DNA of 35,280 nucleotides, from positions 1-35,280 of the forward strand of contig DATGHS010000223.1 of assembly GCA_035307785.1 (NCBI GenBank), given 5' to 3'. Within the stretch, counting starts at the first letter, position 1. Each line of letters begins with the position of its first letter. This DNA comes from Gemmataceae bacterium. Its GTDB lineage: Bacteria; Planctomycetota; Planctomycetia; Gemmatales; Gemmataceae. This document shows positions 4,415 to 26,589 of the stretch, in pieces. The notes under the pieces are model-generated. The model saw nothing but the letters and a program-made list of their open reading frames with translations. It ran no database searches and was not told the origin of the DNA. Both the position numbers and the translations under genes were made by a program.

Positions 4415-5443
4415 TCACGTCTCCCCCAGCAACGTCGGCACCTTCTCGCGCAACAGGTCGATTTCCTGGTGCGTCTCACCGAGGTACGCCAGCAGCTTCA
4501 GGTCGTCACGGCGGACGGTGCCTCCGGAAAGCAACCACGAGCGCACGCGGAAGAGCTTGTACAGCTTCACGAGCTTGCGGTCGCTGATGAAGATGCGGTC
4601 TTCGCGCACCAGGGTTTTCACGATGCGCTGGAATTCGCGGAACACGTCCGGCGGGAAAAACAAATTGCGGTCGTTCTGCTCCTCGCTGTGCCGGCCATCT
4701 TCGATCTTGCGCGCGAACATGTAGGTGAGGTAGCGATTGGCTTTCAGCAAGTCTTCCAGCGTGCAATGCCCTTCCGCCCAGGGCCGCTGATTCAGGCCCC
4801 GCCATGATTCGGATTGGAGCCCATTGTCAATTAGCTCGGTAAAGAACTCGTCCTGCACGCTGCGGCTTTCGATCTTGAGCACGAAGCGGTCTTTCAGCGC
4901 CGCCAGTTCGCCTTGCTCCGGCACCTCATTCGTGGCCGCGAACAGGATGCGCAACTTTACCGGCACCGGGATGCCGTCCTGGTAGAACTTCTTTTCGTTA
5001 ATGATCGTGAGCAGGATGTTGAGGATCGCGGAGTTCGATTTGAAAATTTCATCGAGGAAGGCCAGCCGGGCCGTCGGCAGCTTGCCCTGCTCGCGCCGGA
5101 TGTAGCGGCCGTTGCGCAGTTCATTGATGTCGATGGGGCCAATTATTTCCGATGGCTCAGTGAAGCGCGTGAGCATGTACTCAAAGTAATCTTCGCTGCC
5201 CAGGCCTAGCGCGTCTTTGAACTTCAGCACCATGTCCGACTTGGCGGTGCCCGGCGGTCCGACCAACAGCAATGGCTCTTGAGCGATGGCGGCAACCACC
5301 ATCAGGTCGATGATGTCTTGCTTGTCCACGAAAAAGCGGTTGAGCGAAATGCGAAAACGGTTGATTTTCCCGCGCAATTGCTCCGCCTCTTGCTGCAACT
5401 CGGCAAACGTGGCTTCTTCGGCTTTCTCCATCAAGTCCGGCAT
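4415..5443 (-). CDS. AAA+ ATPase, MoxR/RavA-like (AAA_5-type)
   Basis: Walker A LLLVGPPGTAKS. Walker B LAFLDEIFK. Sensor region FAATNE. No adjacent VWA-domain partner seen. Confidence 0.8.
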   Translation of the reverse strand: MPDLMEKAEEATFAELQQEAEQLRGKINRFRISLNRFFVDKQDIIDLMVVAAIAQEPLLLVGPPGTAKSDMVLKFKDALGLGSEDYFEYMLTRFTEPSEIIGPIDINELRNGRYIRREQGKLPTARLAFLDEIFKSNSAILNILLTIINEKKFYQDGIPVPVKLRILFAATNEVPEQGELAALKDRFVLKIESRSVQDEFFTELIDNGLQSESWRGLNQRPWAEGHCTLEDLLKANRYLTYMFARKIEDGRHSEEQNDRNLFFPPDVFREFQRIVKTLVREDRIFISDRKLVKLYKLFRVRSWLLSGGTVRRDDLKLLAYLGETHQEIDLLREKVPTLLGET

Positions 5444-12805: not shown

Positions 12806-13357
12806 ATGTTTGCCGCCGTGCCTATTCTCGCCATCGTCTTGCTGACGGCTCCGTCAGCCGAGCCCGTGCCGGCCATCTCGGCGGAATACTGGCCGGCCTT
12901 AAAGACGGTCATGCAACAGCTGGCCTGCCAATGGCAAATACTTGATCCGCGCGAGGATCGCTTGTTGCGGCAAGAAGAATTGGCGGCCGATTTGAAGATT
13001 CTGCGCGGCCGGCATCGCGATTTGGCAGACGCACCGAATCTGTACGACTACGTCCGTTTCCCGGAAAAAGCACTGGCCGTGGATTGTCTTTCGTTCAACC
13101 GCGCCTATCGGCGCGTCATCGAAAAGCGCATCCCGCTGGAATCTGATCGGGCGGCGGCACTGAAAGAAATTCTGCGTGAGACCGATGAGCTATACAAGAT
13201 CTGGGATGCCGTACGCGATGCCCGCTGCGAAATCTATTACGTTCCGGTGCGCCGGCAGGCGCTCAAGCAACTACGCAATCTCATCGGGGCCGAAGCTTAT
13301 TACAGCGGCCAACTCCCACCGCATGTGCCGCTGTGGAGGTTTGAGGAGATCAAATAA
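12806..13357 (+). CDS. Secreted hypothetical protein
   Basis: AGGAGG (12794-12799) 6 nt upstream of ATG 12806. Signal peptide MFAAVPILAIVLLTAPSAEP. ORF track begins at 12752. Confidence 0.55.
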   Translation: MFAAVPILAIVLLTAPSAEPVPAISAEYWPALKTVMQQLACQWQILDPREDRLLRQEELAADLKILRGRHRDLADAPNLYDYVRFPEKALAVDCLSFNRAYRRVIEKRIPLESDRAAALKEILRETDELYKIWDAVRDARCEIYYVPVRRQALKQLRNLIGAEAYYSGQLPPHVPLWRFEEIK

Positions 13358-13428: not shown

Positions 13429-13734
13429 TCAGATATCAATCTGCACTTCGTCGCCGACAATCTGCACTGGAAATGTCTGCACTCCCGAACTCGCCGGTGG
13501 GCAGCGATGGCTGCCGGTGGCCAGATCAAATCGGGCCGCGTGCCAAGGACAGGTCACTTCGCCGTTGGCGCAGGTTCCTTCATGCAACGGGGCACCGCGA
13601 TGGGTACACGTATCAGCGATGGCGAATACTTTCCCATCGACGTTGAACAGCGCAATCTTACGGCCGGCGACGTCGACTTGCCTCCCCTTACCGGGATGGA
13701 TTTCAGATAGCAATGCAACTTTGGTAAACGCCAT
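13429..13734 (-). CDS. Rieske-type [2Fe-2S] domain protein (NirD-like small Rieske ferredoxin)
   Basis: CTHRGAPLHEG ... CPWHAARFDLATG gives the CxH...CxxH Rieske ligands. 101 aa. Confidence 0.8.
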   Translation of the reverse strand: MAFTKVALLSEIHPGKGRQVDVAGRKIALFNVDGKVFAIADTCTHRGAPLHEGTCANGEVTCPWHAARFDLATGSHRCPPASSGVQTFPVQIVGDEVQIDI

Positions 13735-13777
13735 AACGATTCTCTTGGCGATTGAGGTCCGAAAACAATCGTGCCGG

Positions 13778-14263
13778 CTATTTCAGGATCTTCACTTCCA
13801 GGATGCCGTCGCGGCAGGAGTGCGTGACTTTCTCCGGCACCGGTGCGAACGGTAAGACGACTTCCTTCATGTACTTGCGCGAACCTTTTTCGGCGCTGAT
13901 TTTGAGCGTTTCACCAACCAATTCCACCTTTACATCTTCGCTGGCCACGCCAGGCATGTCGGCCACAATGCGAATCTGCTCGGCCTCTTCCACGATTTCA
14001 GTGCCGGAGGCATCGCCGGTCGGCGTGCCTGGGCGCCTAGCCGGATTGCCGATTTCGATGGTCAGGGCGGGCCGCTCCAGATCCGCCTTCACGGTGAGGC
14101 TATATATGCCGTGTAGGCCCGTGCCCTCCGGGAAGACGCCTTTGCGCACCCGCTGCACGCCGCTTTCGGCCAGCTGCTGCACGGAATTGACGACATGATG
14201 CAGATTCGACAGCAAGCCCTTGAGGGCTTCGTCGGACGTTGGTTTCATTGGTTCTGAAGACAT
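13778..14263 (-). CDS. Hsp20/alpha-crystallin family small heat-shock protein
   Basis: IVADMPGVASEDVKVELVGETLKISAEK...EVVLPF...DGILEVKILK is the classic ACD pattern. Confidence 0.85.
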   Translation of the reverse strand: MSSEPMKPTSDEALKGLLSNLHHVVNSVQQLAESGVQRVRKGVFPEGTGLHGIYSLTVKADLERPALTIEIGNPARRPGTPTGDASGTEIVEEAEQIRIVADMPGVASEDVKVELVGETLKISAEKGSRKYMKEVVLPFAPVPEKVTHSCRDGILEVKILK

Positions 14264-14311
14264 GATTTTTCCAATCCCGATAAAGAGCGAGCACGCCCTC
14301 GCGTAAGGCGG

Positions 14312-17300
14312 TTAACCGGATTTGCGGGCCATGCGCGAGGCGCTCAATAGCCCATTATGCGAAGAATAGGCCAGTTTGGAAGCGGGCGGGTAGGCCACGG
14401 CATTCAACTTGCCGCAATCGCTTTGAAGCGTGAGTTGCGGTTCGCCGTTTTCGAGCTTCCAAATGCGCACCGTACCATCCCAGCTACAGGAGGCAAGTTG
14501 CTTGCCGCTTGGAGAAAGCGACAGGCAGCGAATCGATTCGCGATGTCCGCTGAGCGTTTGAATTTCGCGACCGGAGGCCAAATCCCAGCGCTTGATGGTG
14601 GTGTCCCAGCTTGCCGAAAAGAGTGTCTGACCATCGGGGGCAAAGAGGACCGAGCTGACCGCCAGGCCATGACCCGTCATCGCGAGCAGTTCTTCGCCGG
14701 CGGCCTGATCCCAGAGTCGTGCGGTCTTGTCCCAACTGGCGGATGCCAATGTCAGCCCATTCGGCGCAAAGGCAAGCGAAGTCACCATCTTTTCGTGGCC
14801 GGAACAAACGGCGCGGGCGCGGCCGGTTGCCAAGTCCCAGAGCCGGATCGTGCGGTCCCAGCTTCCGGAGGCCAGCACTTTGCCGGATGGATGGAATGCC
14901 AGCGAAGTGACGGCCCCCTTGTGGCCGGTGAGCGTCGCACGTTCGGCCTTGTGCTCTATGTCCCAAAGCTTGATGGTCGAATCCCAGCTGGCCGAAGCAA
15001 GAGTCTGGCCGTCGGGAGCGAATGCCACGCTGGTCACTTCGCCAGTATGGCCGGGAAGCACGACTAAGAGTTCGCCGGACGCGATGTCCCAAATGCGAAC
15101 GGTCTGATCGGCGCTGCCGCTTGCCAGGAATAGGCCATCCGGGGAGAAGGCGAGCGAGTTCACGTCCCGGGTGTGCCCCTTCAACTGGCTCAGCTGCTTG
15201 CCAATCTCGGCATTCCAAAGGGAAACTACCTGATCATTGCCCGCCACAGCCAGCACGGTAGCGCGCGTCGACACCGGCACATTCCTCACGTCGCGCGAAA
15301 CGAGCGGCACGACATGCGTTTCCGACACGCTGCCGCCTGGCGGCATGTCTTCCGTAGGGACCATGTCGTTGAAGCGGGGGATCGGCCTGGCCGGAGTCAG
15401 TTCTAAATCCGAAACGGAAGGTGCGGTGGTCGCACTGCCTGTGGCTTCCTCAGCCGTCGCGCGCGGTCTTCCAGAATTCGCTTCCCAGAAGTAGATGATT
15501 CCATTTGCCCCGGCGGCAGCCACGGTCTTCCCGTCCGGGCTAAATGTCACAGCCGCAATATCGGTTGGAAGACCGGTCCATTCGAAGCGCGATTTGCCGG
15601 TGATCGAATGCCAAAGCTTGACCGAGCGATCGGCACCGGCAGAGGCCAACAACGAACCGGTGCCGGAAAACGCTACAGCCATGACCGGTCCTTTGTGGGC
15701 ATCGATATCCACCCATTCGGCGCCCGTGGCCACGTCCCACAATTTCAGCTGTCCATCGACGCCGCCGGTGGCGACGGCTTGACCTTCCGGCGACATCGCC
15801 AGGCAGCGAATTTCCCGGCCATGCGCGGCAATATGATGCTTCTCGCGCCAATTGGCAAGGTCGAAGATCCGCAACATGCCCATCCCGTCGCCCGTCGCCA
15901 GGCTCTTCCCTTCTTGCGCCGCCGCAATAGCGCGCACCGCAGAATCGTGGCCCAAGAGCGATCGGCGAAGTTGTCTTGTCTGCAAATCCCAGACTTTCAC
16001 CGAGCCGTCTTCGCTGCTGGTAATCAACACCTGTCCATCGGGCGGGAATGCCAGGCCGGTAACAGGCCCGCCGTGGCCCGGTAAGGCCATCATGTCCTGG
16101 CCATTGGTATTCTCCCAAAGGCAAACTTTGCCCGCGCTATCGGCGCTGGCCACGAGCCGGCCATCGAATGGAAATCCAACGGCTGTAACTTCGCTGCCGT
16201 GGCCCTGCAAGCGCGAGAGGATTTCCCCGCTGGCGGCATCCCAGAGAAGCACTTCATTGCCGGAGCCCGACGCCAGAAATTGACCATCGGGTGAATAGGT
16301 TAACGCCTTGATCGGCTTACTGGCAATTCTCGAAAGCACCGATGGTTGCGACGGCTTCGCCTGTAGCTTGCTGGACTTCGGGTCTAACTTCGGGACCGCT
16401 GACTTGCTCAACGCCGGCGCCGATTTTCTATCGGCAGCCAAACCGGGCATCTTCGAGGCAGGCAGGGCTGCCGGCGCCAAAGGCAGCGCGGGGCTGCTTG
16501 CCTTGGCTGGCGCGCTTGCCGCCGGTAGTTGCAGGTTCGCCTTCGATTCCGATTGTGGTAGGCCGGAGGGCTTCTCTTCACCGAGTTGAACCGCGATGTT
16601 ATTCAGCTGCCGGCCCGTGCCCAGGTCCCAAGTCTTGACCGTGTGATCGAGGCTGCACGAGGCCAGCCCGTGGCAATCCGGGGAAAAGGCGATCGACGTG
16701 ACCACGCCGCCGTGGCCTTGCAAGGTCGCGCGCAACTCGCCGCTTTCCGCGCTCCAGAGCTTGACCGTGCGATCCCAGCTGGCCGTCGCGAGATATCGTC
16801 CATCGCGGGAGAAGGCAACGGCGGTCACCTCGCCGCCATGTCCGCGCAACGTGGCGCGTTCCTTCCTGGTTTCCACGTCCCAGAGCCGAATGCTGTGATC
16901 AAGACTGCCGGACGCCAGAGTTTTCCCTTCCCGCGAGAAGGCGACGGAGGTAACGTCACCGTTGTGGCCTTTGAGAACTGCCGCGGTCTTGCCCGTGTTC
17001 ACGTCCCATAAGCGCACCGTTTTGTCCCAGCTGCCGCTGGCCAGCAGCAAGCCACTGGGTGCATAAGCTACCGAGGTGACCATCTGCTCGTGCCCCTCGA
17101 GGGCCCTTAATTCGGCGCGGTCTTTTAAATCCCACAGCCGGACGGTCTTGTCCCAGCCACAGCTGGCCAACCGCGACCCGTCGGGCGAAAACGCCAGCGC
17201 CGTAACTACGCCCGTGTGGCCTTTAAGCGTGGTCACCGCATCGCCGTCGGGAAGCCGCCACAGTCGCACGGTCTTGTCCCAACTGGCACTGGCGAGCGTG

Positions 17301-18607
17301 AGGCCGTCGTCGGCAAAAAGAACGCAACTCACCACCCCGCCGTGGCCGCTCAGCGTGAGCAATTCGTTGCCGCTGGCCGCATCCCACAATTTAATTGTTT
17401 TATCCCAGCTCGCCGTAGCTAGCGCTTTACCGTCGGCCGAAAACGACAACGAAGTGATGTCTCCAGAGTGGCTCGAACTGCTGACAATTCTTGGACGCGA
17501 GGCAGCCTGCTCCGCCACCAGCTCCCAGTCAAAGCGGCTGGCCTTCGGGTTTGGAAGGTCCTGGTCGTGTACCAAATCCAGCGCCGGAGGATCTGCTAGA
17601 GCTCCGCCGTCTTGTACCGCTGGCGGTATCGACTCGCCGGCTGGCAAGCCGGTTGCGACTACAACAGGCACAATCGACGTCTGCCCCTCGCGTGGAGGCG
17701 GCACGGTCTTCGGCGGGGTTACCGGAGGCGCTGGTGGCTGGGCCGGCTCCTCTTTTTGCCAAGGCTCTATTGGCGGCTTGGAGCCACCCGCATCAAAGTC
17801 GACTTCACTGCTGAGCTCGGCTGCCGGGGCCACCGAGTCGGACGGAGTAAACAGATTCACTTGTTGTTTTTGCAGAACGGTGGCCATGCCCAGCCATTGG
17901 GCGAGCGTGTGATATTGCACCGCGGCTGGTGATTGGGGGTTCATCGCGATCACCGCCTTGCCGGCCAGCAGCGCTTTCGGCACCTCTGCGTCATAGGGAA
18001 TGGTTTGCGGCAGAATATAACGGCCAAAGATATGCCGGAGATCCACGTCGAAGCCACGGCCCGCAGTCTCGCCCGGTGGCATGGTGAGGAGGATGCCGCG
18101 CATCTGCACCGCGCTTCCTTGCGACTGCATGGCCTTGATGAGCTGGAGAAACATCGGCAATGTCCGGTACGACATGGGCTCGGCCCGGATGATCAGCATC
18201 AAATTGTCGCTGAAGAAAATGAGCTTGCGGAGCAAGTCACCGGTGACGATGGGCGGCGAATCGATGACCAGCCAGCCGTAGCGCTGCGATGACGGGTGCC
18301 GCGACACCGTCTTGAGAAAATCGTCCATCGGCTGCGTGAAGGCAGCGCCGTCACTAGCCGGTTGGATCACGTCGAGGCCGGGGACAACGTTGCGCCAAAC
18401 CACGCCGTCGGCCGCGATGCCCAGTTCGCGAAGCTGCGCTTTATCGGCATGGAGGTGTAAATTGAGTGACGCGGCAACACTTCCCAAGGGATCGGTATCG
18501 ACCAACAAGACCGGAATGCCTGACAGAGCCGCGGCGGTGGACAGATTAATAGCCGTCGTGGTCTTTCCGACGCCGCCTTTCTGGCTGGCGATCAACAATT
18601 TTCGCAC
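14312..18607 (-). CDS. Giant ParA/MinD-family ATPase fused to three WD40 beta-propellers (ORF extends to 18748; GTG 18607 after GGGGAGG avoids a 100-nt overlap with the upstream gene)
   Basis: N-terminal deviant Walker A LLIASQKGGVGKTTTAINL, Walker B WLVIDSPP. Pro-rich linker, then three blocks of ~7 WD40 repeats (GH..V.S.AFSPDG..LAS.S.D.T..LWD) separated by Ala/Pro/Ser/Lys-rich linkers. 1431-1478 aa. Confidence 0.8.
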   Translation of the reverse strand: MRKLLIASQKGGVGKTTTAINLSTAAALSGIPVLLVDTDPLGSVAASLNLHLHADKAQLRELGIAADGVVWRNVVPGLDVIQPASDGAAFTQPMDDFLKTVSRHPSSQRYGWLVIDSPPIVTGDLLRKLIFFSDNLMLIIRAEPMSYRTLPMFLQLIKAMQSQGSAVQMRGILLTMPPGETAGRGFDVDLRHIFGRYILPQTIPYDAEVPKALLAGKAVIAMNPQSPAAVQYHTLAQWLGMATVLQKQQVNLFTPSDSVAPAAELSSEVDFDAGGSKPPIEPWQKEEPAQPPAPPVTPPKTVPPPREGQTSIVPVVVATGLPAGESIPPAVQDGGALADPPALDLVHDQDLPNPKASRFDWELVAEQAASRPRIVSSSSHSGDITSLSFSADGKALATASWDKTIKLWDAASGNELLTLSGHGGVVSCVLFADDGLTLASASWDKTVRLWRLPDGDAVTTLKGHTGVVTALAFSPDGSRLASCGWDKTVRLWDLKDRAELRALEGHEQMVTSVAYAPSGLLLASGSWDKTVRLWDVNTGKTAAVLKGHNGDVTSVAFSREGKTLASGSLDHSIRLWDVETRKERATLRGHGGEVTAVAFSRDGRYLATASWDRTVKLWSAESGELRATLQGHGGVVTSIAFSPDCHGLASCSLDHTVKTWDLGTGRQLNNIAVQLGEEKPSGLPQSESKANLQLPAASAPAKASSPALPLAPAALPASKMPGLAADRKSAPALSKSAVPKLDPKSSKLQAKPSQPSVLSRIASKPIKALTYSPDGQFLASGSGNEVLLWDAASGEILSRLQGHGSEVTAVGFPFDGRLVASADSAGKVCLWENTNGQDMMALPGHGGPVTGLAFPPDGQVLITSSEDGSVKVWDLQTRQLRRSLLGHDSAVRAIAAAQEGKSLATGDGMGMLRIFDLANWREKHHIAAHGREIRCLAMSPEGQAVATGGVDGQLKLWDVATGAEWVDIDAHKGPVMAVAFSGTGSLLASAGADRSVKLWHSITGKSRFEWTGLPTDIAAVTFSPDGKTVAAAGANGIIYFWEANSGRPRATAEEATGSATTAPSVSDLELTPARPIPRFNDMVPTEDMPPGGSVSETHVVPLVSRDVRNVPVSTRATVLAVAGNDQVVSLWNAEIGKQLSQLKGHTRDVNSLAFSPDGLFLASGSADQTVRIWDIASGELLVVLPGHTGEVTSVAFAPDGQTLASASWDSTIKLWDIEHKAERATLTGHKGAVTSLAFHPSGKVLASGSWDRTIRLWDLATGRARAVCSGHEKMVTSLAFAPNGLTLASASWDKTARLWDQAAGEELLAMTGHGLAVSSVLFAPDGQTLFSASWDTTIKRWDLASGREIQTLSGHRESIRCLSLSPSGKQLASCSWDGTVRIWKLENGEPQLTLQSDCGKLNAVAYPPASKLAYSSHNGLLSASRMARKSG

Positions 18608-18648
18608 GATCCAAACCTCCCCGGCCGGTAGGCGTTGCCGCACCCGGT

Positions 18649-19302
18649 TCAGCGTTTCAACAGTGAGTCGTTCAAATTGCGGGCCAATGTACCAAATGCC
18701 GCGGAAGCCACACCTTGAGGAGGCGGGACCCCGGCCTTGAGCGCCCATTCGCGCATTTCCTGCTGCAAAGGAATGACCGGGCTCAGTAGCAATTCGCGAT
18801 GTCCTTCTTGTAACCGGCTAAGCACAGCGCGTTGCACTTCATCCTGGGCATCATAAATGCCGACTAGCAATCCCAATAATTCGAGCCGGCGATTGGCTTC
18901 TCGCGCCTTGCCAATTATCATTGCCGCGGCCGGCACCGTACGAATGGACAGCGGGTCTGCCAAGCTGGTGAGAATAATGCCGTCCGCCGCGCTCAGCACT
19001 CGCTGTGACAACGGATCAAGCAGCGACGGACTATCCACAATCACAATCTGAGTCTGGTGCGGGCCGGCAAGTGCTTCCAGACCGGTCTGAAATTGCACGT
19101 TCGGCCACGGGCACTGGCCGGCCGAATTCAGCGCCACCATGCTCATGGAACGCATCGGTACCGCGTCCACAAGCGTGACCGAGTGGCCCGCCTGACCCAA
19201 ATGCCAGCCCAGGCATAGCGCCGTAGTCGTCCGCCCGGTACCGCCCTTGTGGCTGACGATTCCCAAAATGTAGGGCGACCTCGCCAATGATTTCTCCTTC
19301 AC
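18649..19302 (-). CDS. ParA/MinD-family P-loop paralog with Walker A Lys-to-Arg (SHKGGTGRTTT)
   Basis: 217 aa. ILGIVSHKGGTGRTTTALCLG: signature first Lys present, GK[ST] Lys encoded as CGG (Arg) at 19231-19233 (checked in DNA). Walker B-like QIVIVDSPS. Confidence 0.7.
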   Translation of the reverse strand: MKEKSLARSPYILGIVSHKGGTGRTTTALCLGWHLGQAGHSVTLVDAVPMRSMSMVALNSAGQCPWPNVQFQTGLEALAGPHQTQIVIVDSPSLLDPLSQRVLSAADGIILTSLADPLSIRTVPAAAMIIGKAREANRRLELLGLLVGIYDAQDEVQRAVLSRLQEGHRELLLSPVIPLQQEMREWALKAGVPPPQGVASAAFGTLARNLNDSLLKR

Positions 19303-19537
19303 CGGCTCTTCGCCGAATGCTTGCTCTTGGAACCACGCCCGGCCATCACGTTGATCGGTGTGTCACATTCCTCAGCCGGGGCATGCAATGCCACGTACGA
19401 GTTGGCCAGGAATGGCCGCAACAGCGCAAGAACCTGATTCATCTGCTCACTTTCGGCTTCCAACCATTTCGGATCGAGGGTATCCACGACAATCAGGCTC
19501 CACGGGCGACCTTAAAGGAATGGTTTCGTGGATCGTC

Positions 19538-20296
19538 TCACACACGTGTCTGTTCCAGTGCTGCCAGCACGTCGGCATGATTTTTGCGCCCATGCCCGGC
19601 GAGCGGTTGGAGCCGCTCCGGAACCGTAATGACAAACCGGCTGCGGTCAGCGCCGCAGCTGAAGCAATCCGTTTGCAAGCAATCGAGTTCGGTCCCGGAG
19701 AAGACCGAAAACATGCCGCTCAGAAAGCCGGCCAACAGGGTCTCCACCGGTTGGCCGCCTTGCCGAACGCTTGCCCCCAGCATCGGTGTTTCCACTTCGA
19801 CGGTCAACAAGCCGCGGTCATAGCGGCTGAAACCAAATTGGAAGGTGCCCCAGCCATGATGCTCAAACGCCTGGGCGAGATTGGCACTGAACATAGCCAT
19901 CGGCAAATCCAGCAGCGCTTTGCCGAAATGCTGCTGCATTTGCGCCGCAAATTGTTCCGCTGCCTTGCGGCCCCATTCCCGGCCCGTCGCTTTCAGCACC
20001 GGCAACGCCCGATCCCCCATCTGCCCCTCCAACGAATTGCAGAAAGCGAGCAGGAAATCGTCGGTGAGGGCCAGCATGCGCACGCCGGCCCGATTCTGCA
20101 TCGTGCCCTTGCGCAGATCGTGCTCGATATAGCCGGGCTCGCCGAAGTAGTTGCCCTTCAGCAGCAGGCCTTCTGTATTGGCTTCCATTTCAAGCTCTTG
20201 TTGGTCTTGCCGCCACAAATCCATGTTCGGAGCCGGGGTCGCAAACGGCCGGATTGAGCGCCGTCTCCCATCCGGTCGCTTGCGCTCTCGGCTCAT
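19538..20296 (-). CDS. V4R (4-vinyl reductase / Bet3-like) domain protein (alternative start M at 20224)
   Basis: C-terminal ETLLAGFLSGMFSVFSGTELDCLQTDCFSCGADRSRFVI matches the V4R consensus (G.L.G......G..v.v.E..C...G...C.F.I). Confidence 0.5.
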   Translation of the reverse strand: MSRERKRPDGRRRSIRPFATPAPNMDLWRQDQQELEMEANTEGLLLKGNYFGEPGYIEHDLRKGTMQNRAGVRMLALTDDFLLAFCNSLEGQMGDRALPVLKATGREWGRKAAEQFAAQMQQHFGKALLDLPMAMFSANLAQAFEHHGWGTFQFGFSRYDRGLLTVEVETPMLGASVRQGGQPVETLLAGFLSGMFSVFSGTELDCLQTDCFSCGADRSRFVITVPERLQPLAGHGRKNHADVLAALEQTRV

Positions 20297-20315
20297 ATCC
20301 GTCTTTTAGCTACCG

Positions 20316-20852
20316 TTACGCACTCGTCGCCGCGGGTTCCGGCAGTTCGCTCAAGACTTCAATATTTCGGTCCAAATACGGTTGCAAAAGGGCCGCGGTT
20401 TGCGGGCTGGTATGCTTGGCCACTTGATCGCGCAAGAGCGTGAAGCAATCGCGGCTAAACTTCGGGCTGAAGTTGCCGGCCGCTAAAACTGTGCGCAGCC
20501 AGAACAAGACTTTTTCATCCAGCCAGCGCATGTGGTCGAGAATCATTGCCTGCACATTGAAGCGCAGCACCAATTGTACGTCGTTCTGCGTTTTGGCCAG
20601 CGCCGGGCCCTTTATCGCCGACGATTCCGGATAGCGCTGCTGCATCGCTTCGATCACTGCTTGAACGATGACGTCCTCATGCTCCTGCACCTGATCGGCC
20701 GCTTGAAAGCGCGCGGGCAGCGAGGCGGCTTGGGTCAGCAGCGCCCGTCGTTCATCGGCGTGGAAATAGCGCCCTTCGGCGCCACGGACGAGACTTTGCA
20801 ACTGCGAGTTCATGGGCGAACCTTTCTTCCAACCAGCCTTCCGGCGTGTCAT
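20316..20852 (-). CDS. Phycobilisome-like (globin-fold, PF00502-like) protein lacking the bilin-attachment Cys
   Basis: Aligns along its length to phycocyanin alpha: LVRGAEGRYF~AADTQGRFL, AMQQRYPESS~AVYQKFPYTT, WLDEKVL~PMDEYLI, AAGNFSP~STFDLSP, C-terminal L..YLD..I..L. Cys of the CARD chromophore site is absent. Confidence 0.5.
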   Translation of the reverse strand: MTRRKAGWKKGSPMNSQLQSLVRGAEGRYFHADERRALLTQAASLPARFQAADQVQEHEDVIVQAVIEAMQQRYPESSAIKGPALAKTQNDVQLVLRFNVQAMILDHMRWLDEKVLFWLRTVLAAGNFSPKFSRDCFTLLRDQVAKHTSPQTAALLQPYLDRNIEVLSELPEPAATSA

Positions 20853-21806
20853 TCATTCCCAGGCGGCCAGCGCCATCACCGTCGCCACCGTCCAGGCCGC
20901 ACCGCCGGTCGGCCCATAGCCGAAGAGAGGGACACCCTTGGCCAATGTGATCGTTTCCTTTTCGAGACCAGCGAGCGGATCGCGAATGGGATGGCGAACC
21001 TGATCCGGCCGGTTGCGCCAGTTCATCAGAGTAAAGTATCCCGCGGTCGTTACATTTCCCAGCGGAATAAGATCGGCTGTCGGCACATTCGGTTGTGTGA
21101 CGGGCTTGGACAGAGCAACCGGGATCGGGGCGGGCTTTTTTTCCTCCCGGGTGTTCCGCCAGTTGTACTTTTGCAAAAAGGAACTGGCCGGCTCGAGGGC
21201 CAACTCGGGTGGCGGCGCCGGCTTTTCCACTGCCTGCATTTCCGCTTCGTCCGCGGCGAGCGCGAAATGAACCGGCACCACAGGCGTAATGGGTACCTTG
21301 GGCATTTCCACTTTTGTCGGCGAAGCCACGGGCGGCTCTTCTTTGGCGGGAGAAATTGCAGGCAGTTGCAATTCGGCTTTGGATGGTGAAATAGCGGGTA
21401 GCTGTAGCTCTGCTTTCGATGATGATACGGGAGGCAGCTTCAACTCTGCCTTGGATTGCGACGCGGTAATCCGTTGAAGTTCCGCCCTGGAGAACGAAAC
21501 GGTAGGCGGCAACTTGGTTTCAGGATCGGACGGTCTGGCCGGCATCGCCGGCGGCACGGGCAACGGCAAGGGCGCGATCGGCACTTGCGCCGCGGCCGGC
21601 AGCGCATCCAGGTCCACGTCTTCCAGTGCGAGGCCAGGGGAATCGAATATCGGATGCGATGCTTCCAGCCCCGGTGACTGCGGAACAAACCCTGCGGCCA
21701 AGGGTTGGTTTTCGTCGGGCGGCAAGGGCGGCATCAATTCGGCCAATAACTCTGCGATCTTGGCCCGCTCCGGAATTTCCCTGCCGTTCATATTGCTGCC
21801 AGCCAT
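20853..21806 (-). CDS. Proline-rich protein with four 12-aa tandem repeats (S[KR]AELQLPAISP) and hydrophobic C-terminus
   Basis: AAGGGG RBS-like 5 nt upstream of ATG 21806. Stop overlaps or abuts downstream gene start (20852/20853). Repeats encoded by ~36-nt units at 21348-21491. Confidence 0.55.
   Translation of the reverse strand: MAGSNMNGREIPERAKIAELLAELMPPLPPDENQPLAAGFVPQSPGLEASHPIFDSPGLALEDVDLDALPAAAQVPIAPLPLPVPPAMPARPSDPETKLPPTVSFSRAELQRITASQSKAELKLPPVSSSKAELQLPAISPSKAELQLPAISPAKEEPPVASPTKVEMPKVPITPVVPVHFALAADEAEMQAVEKPAPPPELALEPASSFLQKYNWRNTREEKKPAPIPVALSKPVTQPNVPTADLIPLGNVTTAGYFTLMNWRNRPDQVRHPIRDPLAGLEKETITLAKGVPLFGYGPTGGAAWTVATVMALAAWE
21348..21491 (-). repeat. Four imperfect ~36-nt tandem repeats encoding the 12-aa units of the Pro-rich protein
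   Basis: Encoded SRAELQRITASQ / SKAELKLPPVSS / SKAELQLPAISP / SKAELQLPAISP. Nucleotide units such as ggcagttgcaattcggctttggatggtgaaatagcg and ggtagctgtagctctgctttcgatgatgatacggga. Confidence 0.5.
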
Positions 21807-21907: not shown

Positions 21908-21936
21908 GGCCAGGGAGTTCGGTCCCTGGGTTTTCT
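21908..21936 (-). terminator. Rho-independent terminator-like hairpin after PDZ gene (7-bp stem CCAGGGA/TCCCTGG, 6-nt loop, T-run on both strands)
   Basis: Minus strand reads CCAGGGAccgaacTCCCTGGccttttt, 12 nt after stop at 21947. Plus strand also has gttttct after the stem. Confidence 0.5.
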
Positions 21937-23274: not shown

Positions 23275-26200
23275 ATGCACCGGGAGTTACGAACGACGAA
23301 CGAGGCGTTTCAACCGCCGAAGATGGCCGGGCTCTGCCTGTTCACCGGCTTGCTGCTCTTTCTCGTTGGCCGCGACTTGTGGCCTGATTTGGCCTCTTTC
23401 CTCGGCCGCCAGGGGCTTGACCTGCCCACCGGCTCGCGCGAACTCTTCGGCTTCCGCTATGCCCTTTATGCCGCGGTGATTGGCGGCGCCCGGGTACTTT
23501 ACGGTTCACTCGAAAGCCTGTTCGAAGGAAAGCTCGGGGCCGATCTGGCGCTGGCGGTCGCCTGTATTGCCGCCATTCTTATCGGCGAACCGCTGGTTGC
23601 AGCGGAAGTCGTCCTCATCGGCCTGATTGGCGAGTGTCTGGAAGGCTTCACGTTTGCCCGCACGCAAAACGCCATACGCAAGCTGGCCGAACTTTTCCCC
23701 ATTCGTTGCTGGGTGGTGCGCGACGGACAGGAAATGCGCATGTTCGTAAGCGACGTCGTGGTGGGCGATGTCGTCGTCGTAAAGCCAGGGGCCAAGGTGC
23801 CGGTCGACGGCAACGTGCGCGACGGCCGCTCGGCTGTGGATGTGAGCGCGCTGACCGGCGAAAGCTTGCCGGTGGATAAAGGGCCGGGCGACGAAGTCTT
23901 GGCGGGTAGTTTGAACCAGAATGGCGCCTTAACGATTGAAGCAAAGCGCGTGCAGGAACAAACGGTCGCCGGCCGGGTGCTGGAACTCACCGCGAAGGCA
24001 CTGAAGGAAAAAGCTCCGGTAGCGCGGCACGCTGACCGGTTGGCGAAGTACTTTCTCCCAGCCGTGCTGGCCCTCGCCGCCGTGACCTTCATGGCGAATC
24101 TGCTCTGGTACGCGGGTCCCTTCCGCGGGGAAGCGGTGCGCTTGACGCTGGGCCAGGCGGCGCGGCTCAGCATGTACCCGGCCCTGGCGGTACTGGTGGT
24201 CGCATGCCCGTGCGCATTGATTCTCGCCACTCCGGCAGCGGTTATTGCCGCGCTCGGCCGCCTTGCGGGCACCGGGGTCCTGCTGAAAAGTGGGGCCGCG
24301 CTGGAGCGCCTGGCTGGGGTCACGAGTTTTGCCTTCGACAAGACTGGCACCCTAACGGAGGGCAAGCTCGAACTTGGCGATATTCTGCCGGTCGATAGCA
24401 CCACTCCACCGGAACAACTCTTGCGCCGGGCCGCCAACGCGGAACTGCCAAGCGAGCATCCGCTGGCTCGCGTGCTGGTGCAGGAAGCGCAGCGGCGATC
24501 ACTCGTGCTTGATCCGGTCGAGGAATTCATTGCCCATCCGGGAGCCGGCGTGCGAACGCGGGTTGGCGGCAAAACGCTGCTCGTCGGTACACCGCGGTTG
24601 CTGCAGGAGCAAGGCCTGTCGCCCGGCACCGAAGTGCGCGCACTGCTCGAGCGCCTCGAAAACGATGGCCAAACGCCATTGCTCATTGCCGCCGACGGCC
24701 GCATTCTCGGCGCCATTGGAGCGCGCGACCGTATTCGACCGGAAGCTCGCGGCATTATCGTGGAATTACGCGAATTGGGTATACAGGACATCTCGCTGCT
24801 GACCGGCGACCGGAACGCTGTGGCCGTGAAAGTCGCCTCGGACCTTGGCATCGAATCTGTGCATGCCGAATTGTTGCCGGCCGACAAGGCAAAGCTGGTT
24901 ACCGCCCAAGCGGACACGGAAGCAGCACAGTCGGTTGCCTTTGTTGGCGACGGCGTGAACGATGCGCCGGCACTGGCCAGCGCCACCGTTGGCCTGGCGG
25001 TCGGCGGCGGAGCCGAGATTGCTGCCGAGGCGGGCGACGTCGTGCTGATGGGCGATCCGCTGGCGCCGTTGCCGCTTCTGGTGCGCCTATCGCGGCAAAC
25101 GGTTCACATCATTCGGCAAAACATCGTCATCTTCGCGTTTGGCGTAAACATTGTCGGCATTGTCCTCACCGGCTGGCTCTGGCCGCTGCTTGCGCGCTCG
25201 CCGGAATGGTACGAACGCGCTCCGCTGGCCGGCGTGATCTACCATCAGCTCGGCTCGCTGCTCGTGCTACTGAATTCCATGCGGCTCCTGGCCTTTGAAC
25301 GCAAGAGCGTAAAGGCATCCTCCGGCCGGGTACGCAGCGCTCTACAGCAGCTTGATGTCTGGGTCGAGCGGGCCAGCAATGCGGATGAATGGCTGCACGA
25401 GCTTTCGCATCGCTGGAAGCCGATCGCGCTCGGCATCAGTCTCATCGGCGTTGCTGCCTACGCCGCGAGCGGCCTCACGCAAGTGGAGCCGAACGAAATT
25501 GCCGTGGTGCGGCGCTTTGGCCGGCCGCTTGAAGAGGATCTCGGCCCCGGCCTGCACTGGCGCTGGCCGTGGCCGGTGGAAACCGTGCTGAAGACACAGC
25601 CGGATCAAGTGCGCAGCGTGGAAGTGGGCTTTCGGGTGTTGAAAGATCGTCTGGCGAAAACAGAGGGTCAACAGACACGGGCCGCACTCACCTGGCTCAG
25701 CCAGCACGAAAGCGAAGGCGTGCTCCGGATCGAAGGCGAAGCCGTCATGCCCACCGGCGACGGCAACCTGATCGAACTCTTGGCCACGCTGCAATACCGC
25801 CTCCGCTCACCCCGACGCTATTTGCTGGAAGTGAATAATCCGGACGAAATTCTGCGCGCGAATTTGGAAGCGGCGTTGCGCGAACAGGCGGCCGGCGAAT
25901 CGTTTCTGGAATTGCTCACGCTGCGCCGGGCGGAGTTTCAGCGCGAGGTGTTCGCCCGCTTGCAGAAGCGCTTGCAATCCTACGGCGACCCGGGTCTTGG
26001 CATTGTCTTGGAAGGTCTTGCGCTGCGCGACCTGCACCCGCCGGCCCCGGTAGTGCCGTCGTTCCACGACGTGGCCAAAGCCGCCGAGGGGCACGACCAG
26101 ATGATAAAGGAAGCTGAGGCCGAGGCGCTGCGCATTCGCCGTGACGCCGAGAGCAAAGGGAAGGAAATCGAACGCCAAGCCGAAGCCGCCGCGCATCGCA

Positions 26201-26589
26201 CCGTGGAAATGGCGAAGAAAGACCGCGACGCCTTTCTGGCCTGGTACAGGCTGCGAACCGAACTCAGCCCGGCCGTCGAATCGCGGCTGGCAACGGAAAC
26301 GGTCGGTCTGATCCTGGCCGGGCAAGACGTAACCAGCGCCCTGGCCGACCATCAGCGCCGCCGGCAACAGCAACTGGAGAATCAGGCTTTCCTGGTTGAT
26401 TTCCGGCTGACGTGGATGGCCCTGGGCGAAACGCTCTCGCAGCGCGACAAGGTGTTCATCGATGCCGACAAACTCCCAGGCCGCCGCACGCTGCTGCTCT
26501 TCGGTCCGGACCAACTCACACCGCCGCCCATTATCCTTCCAAGCCGCATGCCAGGGCGAGGGCCGGGTGTGGAGGGGGAGGAACGCTAA
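23275..26589 (+). CDS. P1B-type (CPC) heavy-metal-translocating P-type ATPase fused in frame to a C-terminal HflK/SPFH (band-7) domain
   Basis: P1B ATPase motifs TGESLPVDK, CPCALILATPAA, FDKTGTLTEG, VGDGVNDAPALA. No N-terminal HMA/CxxC domain. After the last ATPase helices comes a TM helix PIALGISLIGVAAYAA, then the SPFH domain EPNEIAVVRRFGRPLEEDLGPGLHWRWPWPVETV, then an HflK-like coiled-coil tail (AEAEALRIRRDAESKGKEIERQAEAAA). Confidence 0.8.
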   Translation: MHRELRTTNEAFQPPKMAGLCLFTGLLLFLVGRDLWPDLASFLGRQGLDLPTGSRELFGFRYALYAAVIGGARVLYGSLESLFEGKLGADLALAVACIAAILIGEPLVAAEVVLIGLIGECLEGFTFARTQNAIRKLAELFPIRCWVVRDGQEMRMFVSDVVVGDVVVVKPGAKVPVDGNVRDGRSAVDVSALTGESLPVDKGPGDEVLAGSLNQNGALTIEAKRVQEQTVAGRVLELTAKALKEKAPVARHADRLAKYFLPAVLALAAVTFMANLLWYAGPFRGEAVRLTLGQAARLSMYPALAVLVVACPCALILATPAAVIAALGRLAGTGVLLKSGAALERLAGVTSFAFDKTGTLTEGKLELGDILPVDSTTPPEQLLRRAANAELPSEHPLARVLVQEAQRRSLVLDPVEEFIAHPGAGVRTRVGGKTLLVGTPRLLQEQGLSPGTEVRALLERLENDGQTPLLIAADGRILGAIGARDRIRPEARGIIVELRELGIQDISLLTGDRNAVAVKVASDLGIESVHAELLPADKAKLVTAQADTEAAQSVAFVGDGVNDAPALASATVGLAVGGGAEIAAEAGDVVLMGDPLAPLPLLVRLSRQTVHIIRQNIVIFAFGVNIVGIVLTGWLWPLLARSPEWYERAPLAGVIYHQLGSLLVLLNSMRLLAFERKSVKASSGRVRSALQQLDVWVERASNADEWLHELSHRWKPIALGISLIGVAAYAASGLTQVEPNEIAVVRRFGRPLEEDLGPGLHWRWPWPVETVLKTQPDQVRSVEVGFRVLKDRLAKTEGQQTRAALTWLSQHESEGVLRIEGEAVMPTGDGNLIELLATLQYRLRSPRRYLLEVNNPDEILRANLEAALREQAAGESFLELLTLRRAEFQREVFARLQKRLQSYGDPGLGIVLEGLALRDLHPPAPVVPSFHDVAKAAEGHDQMIKEAEAEALRIRRDAESKGKEIERQAEAAAHRTVEMAKKDRDAFLAWYRLRTELSPAVESRLATETVGLILAGQDVTSALADHQRRRQQQLENQAFLVDFRLTWMALGETLSQRDKVFIDADKLPGRRTLLLFGPDQLTPPPIILPSRMPGRGPGVEGEER

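Follow-up and report, generated by a model that had tools for sequence, protein, structure and literature searches.

A divergent ParA pair with a WD40-fused member accompanies a globin/V4R gene module in Planctomycetia

Organization of the gene cluster

In this study we describe a gene cluster on a 35,280-nt contig (DATGHS010000223.1; hereafter the window, meaning the whole stretch of DNA that was analysed) from a metagenome-assembled genome (MAG) of a Gemmataceae bacterium, a soil planctomycete; of this genome, the analysis covered the window. Seven co-directional open reading frames (ORFs) were found on the minus strand in the ORF listing, at the coordinates at which a first-pass annotation of the bare sequence had placed them. 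They encode a Pro-rich protein (protein X), a phycobiliprotein-family globin, a V4R-domain protein (V4R-B), a small and a long ParA-like ATPase (ParA-s and ParA-long), the latter fused to WD40 propellers, a small heat-shock protein (sHsp) of the Hsp20 family and a Rieske-type ferredoxin (Table 1). Searches against Pfam supported all the domain calls made earlier, namely the globin, V4R, the two ParA-like ATPases, WD40, Hsp20 and Rieske. Comparison with related loci and with published gene clusters suggested that the upstream half of the cluster corresponds to a known bilin-associated module, whereas its linkage to a tandem ParA pair, WD40 propellers and an sHsp appears to be undescribed.

Table 1. 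Features of the cluster in the window, listed in the direction of transcription.
Feature	Position	Strand	Size	Remarks
GC-rich hairpin with T-run	21910..21929	-		Between the upstream PDZ gene and X; terminator-like
Protein X	20853..21806	-	317 aa	No Pfam or NCBIfam family
Phycobiliprotein-family globin	20316..20813	-	165 aa	Longest ORF to 20852; PF00502 (Phycobilisome), E 1.9e-17
V4R-B	19538..20188	-	216 aa	Longest ORF to 20296; PF02830
Small ORF	19299..19487	-	62 aa	GTG start; conserved N-terminal motif
ParA-s	18649..19302	-	217 aa	CbiA, AAA_31 and ParA_partition matches; SHKGGTGRTT
ParA-long	14312..18607	-	~1431 aa	Longest ORF to 18748; ParA domain and 18 WD40 stretches (Pfam)
ParA domain of ParA-long	~17867-18607	-		
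WD40 propellers of ParA-long	~16625-17503, 15482-16324, 14417-15304	-		
Hsp20 (alpha-crystallin domain)	13778..14263	-	161 aa	HSP20, E 4.6e-9
Rieske-type [2Fe-2S] ferredoxin	13429..13734	-	101 aa	PF00355, E 3.5e-21

Several gene boundaries differed from those of the longest ORFs. The globin start was set by homology, which gives the protein the same length as in 18 of 18 relatives and separates it from X by 39 nt, not by the 0-nt gap (20853/20852) annotated before. The V4R-B start matches the NCBI annotation, in which the protein is named 4-vinyl reductase. The GTG start of ParA-long lies 8 nt past a GGAGG sequence and falls on the same residue as the starts of its orthologs in two related loci (L001 and L013; see below). 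The overlap of 40-100 nt that had been reported for the ParA genes is thus a longest-ORF artefact, since the Shine-Dalgarno sequence, the GTG codon and the ortholog alignments give a 41-nt gap between the ParA-s stop and the ParA-long start. The interval of about 235 nt described between V4R-B and ParA-s was not empty either; it holds a conserved 62-aa ORF which had been overlooked and whose TGA stop codon overlaps the GTG of ParA-s at 19302. An alternative ParA-s start, TTG at 19287, is situated behind AAGGAG.

The hairpin upstream of X probably delimits the transcription unit on its 5' side, although the evidence is weak. Promoter and terminator scans yielded site counts not above the shuffled expectation. 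No Rfam matches were obtained over the whole window, and no tandem DNA repeats were detected between positions 13000 and 22000.

Conservation of the gene order

We mapped by tblastn the genes of about 25 related loci from Planctomycetia, both metagenomic and MAG-derived (designated L with a number). These were collected from contigs carrying close or distant relatives of the globin (relatives designated P with a number), from a scan of species-representative genomes and from a metagenome scan with a small-ParA profile. The species-representative scan with the globin profile, which was pattern-based and thus of limited sensitivity, returned two matches only, both of them MAGs, one from an uncultured member of Gemmataceae and the other from Planctomycetia. 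Wherever flanking DNA was present, ParA-s was flanked by V4R-B upstream and by ParA-long downstream. The conservation of the neighbourhood, which the first-pass annotation had proposed to check in related genomes, was found in these loci: the order is the same in about 25 of them, and it is kept at 38-58% protein identity to the window in several planctomycete lineages.

This finding bears on the possibility that the genes form no functional unit and are mere neighbours which are expressed independently. The uninformative promoter and terminator scans would be compatible with that view, and for the Rieske gene mere adjacency is in fact what we found (see below). However, the conserved order, the intergenic gaps of 0-130 nt and the overlap of the small-ORF stop with the ParA-s start make it most improbable.

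The fullest loci (L012, L013 and L020) have the order Ser/Thr kinase - ferredoxin-dependent bilin reductase (FDBR) homolog - V4R-A - X - globin - V4R-B - (small ORF) - ParA-s - ParA-long - Hsp20, where V4R-A is a second V4R protein and the kinase is of the Hanks type. In L001 this order is found without the kinase, and L005-L008 have the kinase and no FDBR homolog. A second, short kinase lies between V4R-B and ParA-s in L009, L020, L025 and L026. Altogether, Ser/Thr kinases are encoded inside the cluster in L005-L009, L012, L013, L020, L025 and L026, and both V4R types occur in L001, L005-L008, L012, L013 and L020. The FDBR homolog is present in L001, L012, L013 and L020; its PF05996 score is 44 bits for the L020 protein and 25 bits for that of L001. 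From these maps, the conserved core comprises the globin, V4R-B, an X-like protein, ParA-s and ParA-long, usually together with a kinase.

In the clade of the window (globins P0001-P0010) no kinase, FDBR or V4R-A gene lies beside the cluster. On the window contig itself, tblastn detected none of the three at any position. The syntenic 34.6-kb contig of globin P0006 reads P-type ATPase/SPFH - PDZ - X - globin - V4R - 63-aa protein - ParA-s - giant ParA.

Relation of the upstream half to BBAG clusters

Gene clusters encoding phycobiliprotein-like globins named BBAGs have been described in heterotrophic bacteria, including Planctomycetes (Rockwell, Martin & Lagarias, PNAS 2023; PMC10151467). In addition to the globins, they encode a pre-PcyA FDBR, a heme oxygenase, an Fe-S protein and two V4R proteins of distinct clades. 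The BBAG globins were shown to bind bilins and were weakly fluorescent and photoinert in vitro, and the cyanobacterial descendant of the cluster is slr0144-slr0149 (PMC10151467). Slr0144 and Slr0147 are its two V4R proteins (PMC13326532), slr0148 encodes Fed5 (PMC4284462), and slr0151 encodes a tetratricopeptide repeat (TPR) protein according to the title of PMC4853703.

Distant relatives of V4R-B were located in such canonical clusters, which lack ParA genes. A planctomycete-like locus (L090:3551-11777) has the order Ser/Thr kinase - PAS histidine kinase - Fer2 - V4R - V4R - globin - globin - heme oxygenase - Fer2::Pkinase. Two cyanobacterial-type loci (L092 and L093) read V4R - 118/132-aa protein - globin - V4R - Fer2 - globin - TPR, which agrees with slr0144-slr0151 as far as the latter order has been published. 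The fusion of a ferredoxin with a Ser/Thr kinase in L090 (Fer2::Pkinase) is unusual and suggests redox-coupled signalling.

The window cluster has in common with the BBAG clusters the phycobiliprotein-family globin, the slr0147-type V4R protein and the protein with a tryptophan (W) motif at the slr0145 position, and loci orthologous to the window additionally have the slr0144-type V4R protein, the pre-PcyA-like FDBR and, in some globins, the bilin-attachment motif CXRD. Thus, the assignment of the upstream half to a BBAG/V4R bilin-associated module, the counterpart of slr0144-0149, is well supported, because fuller loci carry FDBR homologs, the V4R proteins are orthologous and the globin is of the slr0149 type. 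For the window itself this membership rests on orthology, because no FDBR homolog was detected on the 35-kb contig by tblastn and no heme oxygenase was found in Pfam scans of its larger ORFs. Unlike the BBAG clusters, the ParA-linked loci were seen without a heme oxygenase or a Fer2-type Fe-S protein (the latter was absent from the window cluster, L001, L012, L013 and L020 and present in L090, L092 and L093) and with one globin instead of two. At the same time, they contain additional genes: the small ORF, the degenerate and the canonical ParA (the latter fused to three WD40 propellers or not) and the sHsp. In the window copy, FDBR and V4R-A are missing as well, and the CXRD motif has neither its Cys nor its Arg.

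The first-pass annotation had not recognised the gene combination as a described system. This does not hold for the upstream half, which is the BBAG/V4R cluster of PMC10151467, and it appears to hold for what is added downstream. No link to ParA, WD40 or sHsp genes is mentioned in PMC10151467, in its supplement or in the 2026 follow-up (PMC13446030), and our literature search for a ParA-WD40 fusion in Planctomycetes and for a ParA link to BBAG clusters retrieved nothing relevant. The downstream half, consisting of the tandem ParA pair with its Lys-to-Arg subunit, the ParA giant with three WD40 propellers and the sHsp, thus appears to be undescribed.

The globin and its bilin-attachment motif

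The profile of the globin family aligned over its full length with the phycocyanin and allophycocyanin chains in PDB (E ~1e-9). In the NCBI annotation the window globin (VKS79_10325) is a hypothetical protein. Its Thr75 aligns with the bilin-binding Cys84 of CpcA, in agreement with the earlier remark that the bilin Cys is missing, and the whole CXRD position reads TQND. In pairwise comparison the globin at the slr0149 position (29% identity, 1e-13) was a closer relative of the window protein than the one at the slr0146 position. By its sequence, the window protein appears to be a BBAG-type globin with a degenerate bilin-attachment motif. The form C[YFA]RD is kept in the globins of L001, L017, L020 and P0017. 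Those with C[YF]RD adjoin the bilin reductase gene in L001 and L020, and the L017 contig stops short of the reductase position.

Among 120 single-domain representatives of the family, about 90% keep the Arg-Asp of CXRD and most lack the Cys, so it is the loss of the Arg that is an unusual feature of the window globin. In phycobiliproteins this Arg contacts a propionate of the bilin. A set of 13 sequences had suggested that the loss of Cys75 is compensated by Cys123 (a cysteine swap), the latter residue being aligned with Ala132 of CpcA, one helical turn past Trp128. This idea was rejected, as the two positions were not anticorrelated in the 120 representatives: 87 had neither Cys, 20 had Cys75 only, 10 had Cys123 only and three had both. 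Among the relatives of the globin in the representative library we also observed polyglobins with four to seven tandem phycobiliprotein-like domains per polypeptide (P0043, P0084, P0091, P0120 with ~970 aa, P0069 with 835 aa, P0099, P0064 and P0110).

The V4R proteins

V4R-B matched PF02830 with 32.2 bits (cutoff 31). Its AlphaFold2 (AF2) model (pLDDT 77) was compared with solved structures by Foldseek. The matches were the aromatic-sensor domains of MopR, DmpR and PoxR (E ~1e-8), the V4R structure MJ1460 and the TRAPP subunit Bet3/TRAPPC3 (E ~1e-5 to 1e-4), the Foldseek probability being 1.00 for all three groups. Both the V4R call and its kinship to Bet3 are thereby upheld. The model superposes on the folds of the MopR/DmpR/XylR sensors and of Bet3, and V4R-B is predicted to have the full small-molecule sensor fold of the MopR/DmpR type. 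Unlike MopR, DmpR and XylR, it is a stand-alone protein without an AAA+ or DNA-binding output domain. Its sequence identity to the sensor domains and Bet3 is only 13-18%.

In comparison with the canonical clusters of L092, L093 and L090, V4R-B shared 38-41% identity with the second V4R protein and 21-31% with the first, which points to the slr0147 type. The V4R-A proteins of L001 and L013 were of the slr0144-position type in pairwise comparison.

Protein X and the small ORF

Protein X had no match in Pfam or NCBIfam, and its family is tiny (eight clusters among 5.8e9 proteins). The protein is Pro-rich, with an N-terminal helix IAELLAELMP, SKAELxLP repeats, two internal FxxxNWRN motifs and the C-terminus ...AAWE. 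In the alignment NWRN was invariant, as was the C-terminal Trp, which lies within the last one to three residues of all orthologs. The AF2 model (mean pLDDT 49) contains helices only at the four conserved motifs, and X is predicted to be mostly disordered. In L001, L005, L008, L012, L013, L017 and L020 an ortholog lies between the V4R-A and globin genes. The window protein carries an insertion at residues ~100-160, made of SKAELxLP peptide repeats, that is absent from its closest relatives (256 aa); repeats of the SKAEFKLEP type occur in the more distant relatives P0026 and P0027. The repetition exists at the peptide level only, with no tandem repeat in the DNA.

The 118-aa and 132-aa proteins at the slr0145 position (L092:9103-9459 and L093:6150-6548) have in common with X a triple motif V..FF...[NP]W.G/N, as exemplified by VADFFGRVNWKN in X of L020 and VREFFGLIPWGG in L092. 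They also end in DDLAQLF, which resembles the N-terminal helix of X in the form IAQLLAELMP. Overall similarity was not statistically significant, so the proposed homology is based on the common motif and the common position. Thus X would be an elongated counterpart of the small slr0145-position protein, and the FF...NW motif provides an annotation for a cyanobacterial orphan.

The protein of the small ORF begins with MDTLDPKWLEAESEQMNQVLALLRPFL and has the N-terminal motif LDPxLLxxEaxRMxxVLxLL. In three-frame translations this motif was detected in the same gap of L008, L011, L012, L013, L014, L016, L017, L023 and L030, and gene calling placed a 63-aa gene in the corresponding position of the P0006 contig. 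As the motif is short, its statistical support is weak (tblastn E 0.002-0.4). Both X and the 62-aa protein have conserved short helices; two or three genes lie between X and the ParA genes.

The ParA pair

The best PDB match of ParA-s was Soj of Thermus thermophilus (1wcv), and the ParA domain of ParA-long matched the same structure over the whole domain (E 3e-19). The two paralogs are only ~24% identical to each other, yet both keep the fold, the signature Lys and the Walker B motif of the Soj/ParA-MinD family, of which T. thermophilus Soj (1wcv/2bek) is the closest structure. The Walker A motif of ParA-s (SHKGGTGRTT) retains the signature Lys and has Arg in place of the P-loop Lys. The sequence KGGTGR was invariant in every ParA-s ortholog captured by the motif scan, so the Lys-to-Arg change noticed before is real and conserved. 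ParA-long of the window reads SQKGGVGKTT, as do all its orthologs in the scan, and also has DTDP. The ParA-s of the window additionally reads DAVP instead of DxDP, with Val at the position of Soj Asp44, the catalytic Asp; this was seen only in the window.

Besides the P-loop Arg, several features set the pair apart from Soj/ParA-MinD proteins. Two divergent paralogs stand in tandem, ParA-s is about 35 residues shorter, and ParA-long has a C-terminal extension of 1,180 residues or, in L025 and L026, a transmembrane tail. The cluster contains no ParB, MinE or centromere. In the deviant Walker A ATPases the signature Lys acts in trans, across the dimer interface.

The arginines of Soj within YDGRT and NVRL reportedly bind DNA (Hester & Lutkenhaus 2007). 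The positions aligned with these motifs read PPGET and DAEV in ParA-long and YDAQD and QQEM in ParA-s, so that the equivalents of Soj R189 and R218 are Glu and Glu in the former and Gln and Glu in the latter. The analogy with ParA positioning motors, which had been drawn in the first-pass annotation, is weakened by the absence of the two DNA-binding arginines from both paralogs.

This also concerns a more specific explanation, in which the pair would distribute a cytoplasmic body, such as an assembly of globin and V4R proteins, through the large cell of Gemmataceae as McdAB does, with X as an McdB-like adaptor acting through its C-terminal Trp. ParA-family ATPases with partners are the standard positioning motors, and a ParA-type ATPase together with a disordered, putative partner that has an invariant Trp near its C-terminus resembles McdA/McdB: alpha-McdB is fully disordered and needs its invariant C-terminal Trp for cargo binding (PMC11321042). 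However, the W motifs of X are ancestral and pre-date the association with ParA, since the same triple motif occurs in clusters without ParA, and X as a dedicated McdB-like adaptor is weakened accordingly. In addition, the long ParA is membrane-anchored in one lineage, two ATPases are present instead of one, and Pfam scans, which covered the cluster genes and the majority of window ORFs of at least 150 aa, revealed no microcompartment shell or other obvious cargo genes. Both ATPases keep the signature Lys, unlike McdA of Synechococcus elongatus, which reportedly lacks it. Taken together with the missing arginines, these observations make McdAB-like positioning quite unlikely.

The arginine-containing P-loop raised another possibility, that kinase, WD40 and variant P-loop ATPase (KGGxGR) belong to an anti-phage or conflict system of the type of NTPase-based immunity or programmed death in morphologically complex bacteria. 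WD40 and Ser/Thr kinase proteins are common in such systems. ParA-s weakly matched the NCBIfam model NF047398 (KGGVGR-motif variant AAA ATPase), and about 9 kb from the cluster the window encodes a bpMoxR ternary-system AAA+ ATPase (4415-5443 on the minus strand; PF20030, E 7.8e-58), a gene of the MoxR-vWA-beta-propeller ternary-system type. However, the NF047398 score was 27 bits, far under the cutoff of 90, and PADLOC returned only generic P-loop and WD40 similarity, for which reasons membership in a defence system was rejected. No effector domain (nuclease, TIR, protease or pore) was seen in any version of the cluster, and its stable link to a metabolic or cofactor module in conserved order differs from the rapid turnover of defence islands. 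We consider a defence function very unlikely.

The window copy is a reduced derivative of the cluster and not its archetype, because it has no FDBR, V4R-A or kinase gene, its globin reads TQND and its ParA-s has acquired a second inactivating change. The kinase, FDBR and V4R-A genes may be dispersed elsewhere in the genome and not lost from the lineage. The window copy probably does without a covalently bound bilin, and its second ATP site is probably inactive altogether.

The WD40 fusion and Hsp20

Blade counting in ParA-long gave three propellers of seven 42-aa blades each, 21 blades in total, in agreement with the earlier description of a canonical ParA domain fused to three WD40 propellers. 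Linkers of ~110, 115 and 75 residues in the protein are rich in Pro, Ala and Ser. A separate WD40 protein, which runs off the contig start, is encoded at 7-1410 on the plus strand, and its repeats are 31-35% identical to those of the ParA-long propellers. WD40 proteins are abundant in the genome, so that the fusion partner would have been drawn from a large pool of paralogs.

In L025 and L026 ParA-long (L025:3192-4194 and L026:3609-4650) has ~345 aa and no WD40 repeats and ends with a hydrophobic, transmembrane-like helix (WVPWIAASMLIGVVGAVVIRLAWG), which would make it tail-anchored; a C-terminal segment of this kind was seen in these two loci only. In L009 ParA-long has ~300 aa. None of these three loci has an Hsp20 gene. 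The WD40 fusion is thus lineage-specific, the WD40 propellers and the sHsp being additions of the Gemmataceae-type clade.

Hsp20 of the window scored 36.7 bits against PF00011 (cutoff 20.8), and its N-terminal region is conserved. Its best NCBIfam match was archaeal Hsp20 (73 bits, below the cutoff of that model), and a weak match to ArsA_HSP20 was also below cutoff. Orthologs with 44-46% identity directly follow ParA-long in L001, L012 and L013, and Hsp20 comes after ParA-long in five of the six loci which reach the 3' end. In L020 a regulator gene is inserted between the two, and L008 has no Hsp20. The inserted gene (L020:14923-16830) would encode a sigma-54-type (NtrC-like) response regulator, as read from its translation in this GC-rich lineage.

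Possible functions of the module

In our tentative reading of the cluster, a module that senses tetrapyrroles is coupled to a ParA scaffold with an asymmetric ATP switch; we put the chances of this reading at somewhat less than even. ParA-s and ParA-long would form an ATP-sandwich heterodimer with one hydrolytic and one degenerate site. If the ParA-s site binds ATP and hydrolyses it poorly, the pair could act as a slow nucleotide switch and not as a nucleoid-surfing motor; the latter is disfavoured since neither paralog has equivalents of the DNA-binding arginines of Soj. The switch would control the assembly of partners on the WD40 platforms, or at the membrane via the transmembrane tail in one lineage. 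The input could be the ligand state of the globin/V4R sensor, the ligand being a bilin, another tetrapyrrole or a hydrophobic molecule, and in full clusters also the kinase. X and the small-ORF protein could serve the ATPase pair as adaptors or regulators, and the sHsp may stabilise the assembly. Signalling is suggested by the recurrence of Ser/Thr kinases and by the presence of a Ser/Thr kinase, a PAS histidine kinase and Fer2::Pkinase in L090. Of the sensor-coupled positioning or scaffolding machine that the first-pass annotation had considered, the sensor-coupled scaffold is still reasonable in view of the kinases and the bilin reductase in fuller clusters, whereas the positioning part is weakened.

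Several points speak against this interpretation. All its functional steps are derived from domain content and synteny. The WD40 fusion and Hsp20 are absent from L009, L025 and L026 and are thus not essential to the core function. The lineage of the window keeps the ATPase module without kinase and reductase, which implies that the module can work without both. The word sensor is itself an assumption, because BBAGs were weakly fluorescent and photoinert in vitro (PMC10151467), and the homologous cyanobacterial operon has been tied to the assembly or stability of photosystem II (PSII) and not to signalling (PMC9145668, PMC13326532).

The last observation leads to the chief rival explanation, in which the cluster has an assembly or chaperone role. 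Here the globin and V4R proteins would carry or buffer a tetrapyrrole or bilin, and the ParA pair, the WD40 propellers and the sHsp would act as an assembly or holdase machine, delivering the cofactor or stabilising a client in an ATP-dependent manner. The proposed role of the slr0144-0152 operon in PSII assembly and stabilisation fits such a function, as do the conserved position of the sHsp directly downstream of ParA-long in the WD40-bearing clade and the membrane-anchored long ParA of one lineage. Many ParA-fold relatives are delivery or maturation ATPases, and the ParA proteins had weak NCBIfam matches to Mrp, ApbC and Get3/ArsA. A parallel is Get3d, a related ATPase of the SIMIBI class which, in photosynthetic organisms, has a C-terminal alpha-crystallin domain (PMC10248533); in both cases a dimeric or putatively dimeric P-loop ATPase of ParA-related fold is linked to a crystallin domain in lineages connected with tetrapyrrole-rich systems, and the weak ArsA_HSP20 match of Hsp20 points in the same direction. 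However, this match is below cutoff, the crystallin domain is encoded by a separate gene here, and both ATPases match Soj/ParA best and not Mrp or Get3. Furthermore, genes for a client complex are absent from the cluster and its surroundings, photosystems do not occur in Planctomycetes, recurrent kinases are more typical of signalling, and Hsp20 is missing from L008 and from the L009/L025/L026 lineage. On balance, an assembly factor seems possible but rather unlikely.

A bolder version of the tetrapyrrole-sensing scaffold would make the BBAG globin and V4R a genuine bilin-based sensor, of light or of heme breakdown, which drives the ATP-gated assembly of the ParA heterodimer with its three WD40 platforms and whose output is neither transcription nor a second messenger. 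We regard this version as unlikely. If true, it would represent a new signalling logic in non-photosynthetic bacteria, from a photoreceptor or tetrapyrrole sensor through a ParA switch to a protein scaffold, and it would give the first functional handle on the family ancestral to the cyanobacterial phycobiliproteins.

Since 2023 the BBAG globins, their V4R partners and the pre-PcyA reductases have been known as the ancestors, in heterotrophs, of phycobiliproteins and of phycocyanobilin synthesis. Their conserved linkage to Ser/Thr kinases, paired ParA proteins, WD40 propellers and an sHsp offers concrete and testable interaction partners for the BBAG module, and the variants with and without reductase, Cys, kinase and WD40 fusion are a natural comparison set. 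With regard to ParA biology, the pair is a natural and conserved candidate heterodimer in which one ATP site is degenerate and the other subunit has a giant interaction extension, and it lies outside the usual paradigm of a ParA with an adaptor on the nucleoid.

Neighbouring genes

The Rieske protein, which had been counted as part of the cluster, has intact CxH...CxxH ligands (CTH and CPWH) and resembles HcaC and AndAb, with scores below the NCBIfam cutoffs. The domain is thus real, but tblastn detected no homolog in any of L001-L030. Its candidacy as the Fe-S component of the cluster was rejected, as it has no counterpart in the related loci and the canonical clusters use Fer2.

In other loci Hsp20 is followed by a TIG-domain protein (L001) or by a protein of 249-278 aa with hydrophobic stretches (L012:12018-12761 and L013:15403-16152). 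The latter two are 64% identical to each other and probably membrane-spanning; they are absent from the window and L001, and the L013 protein, the only copy scanned, had no Pfam match. Upstream of the kinase/FDBR end of the cluster a divergently transcribed gene encodes a protein of 414-545 aa in L001 (5871-7127, minus strand), L005, L008 and L013, which is absent from the window. It has a signal-peptide-like N-terminus and the C-terminus ...DFIVRY and looks like an outer-membrane beta-barrel protein. Upstream of X, the plus strand of the window (23275-26589) encodes a P-type (E1-E2) ATPase of 1104 aa with a C-terminal SPFH/Band 7 domain, and the same fusion with the same PDZ neighbour is present on the P0006 contig.

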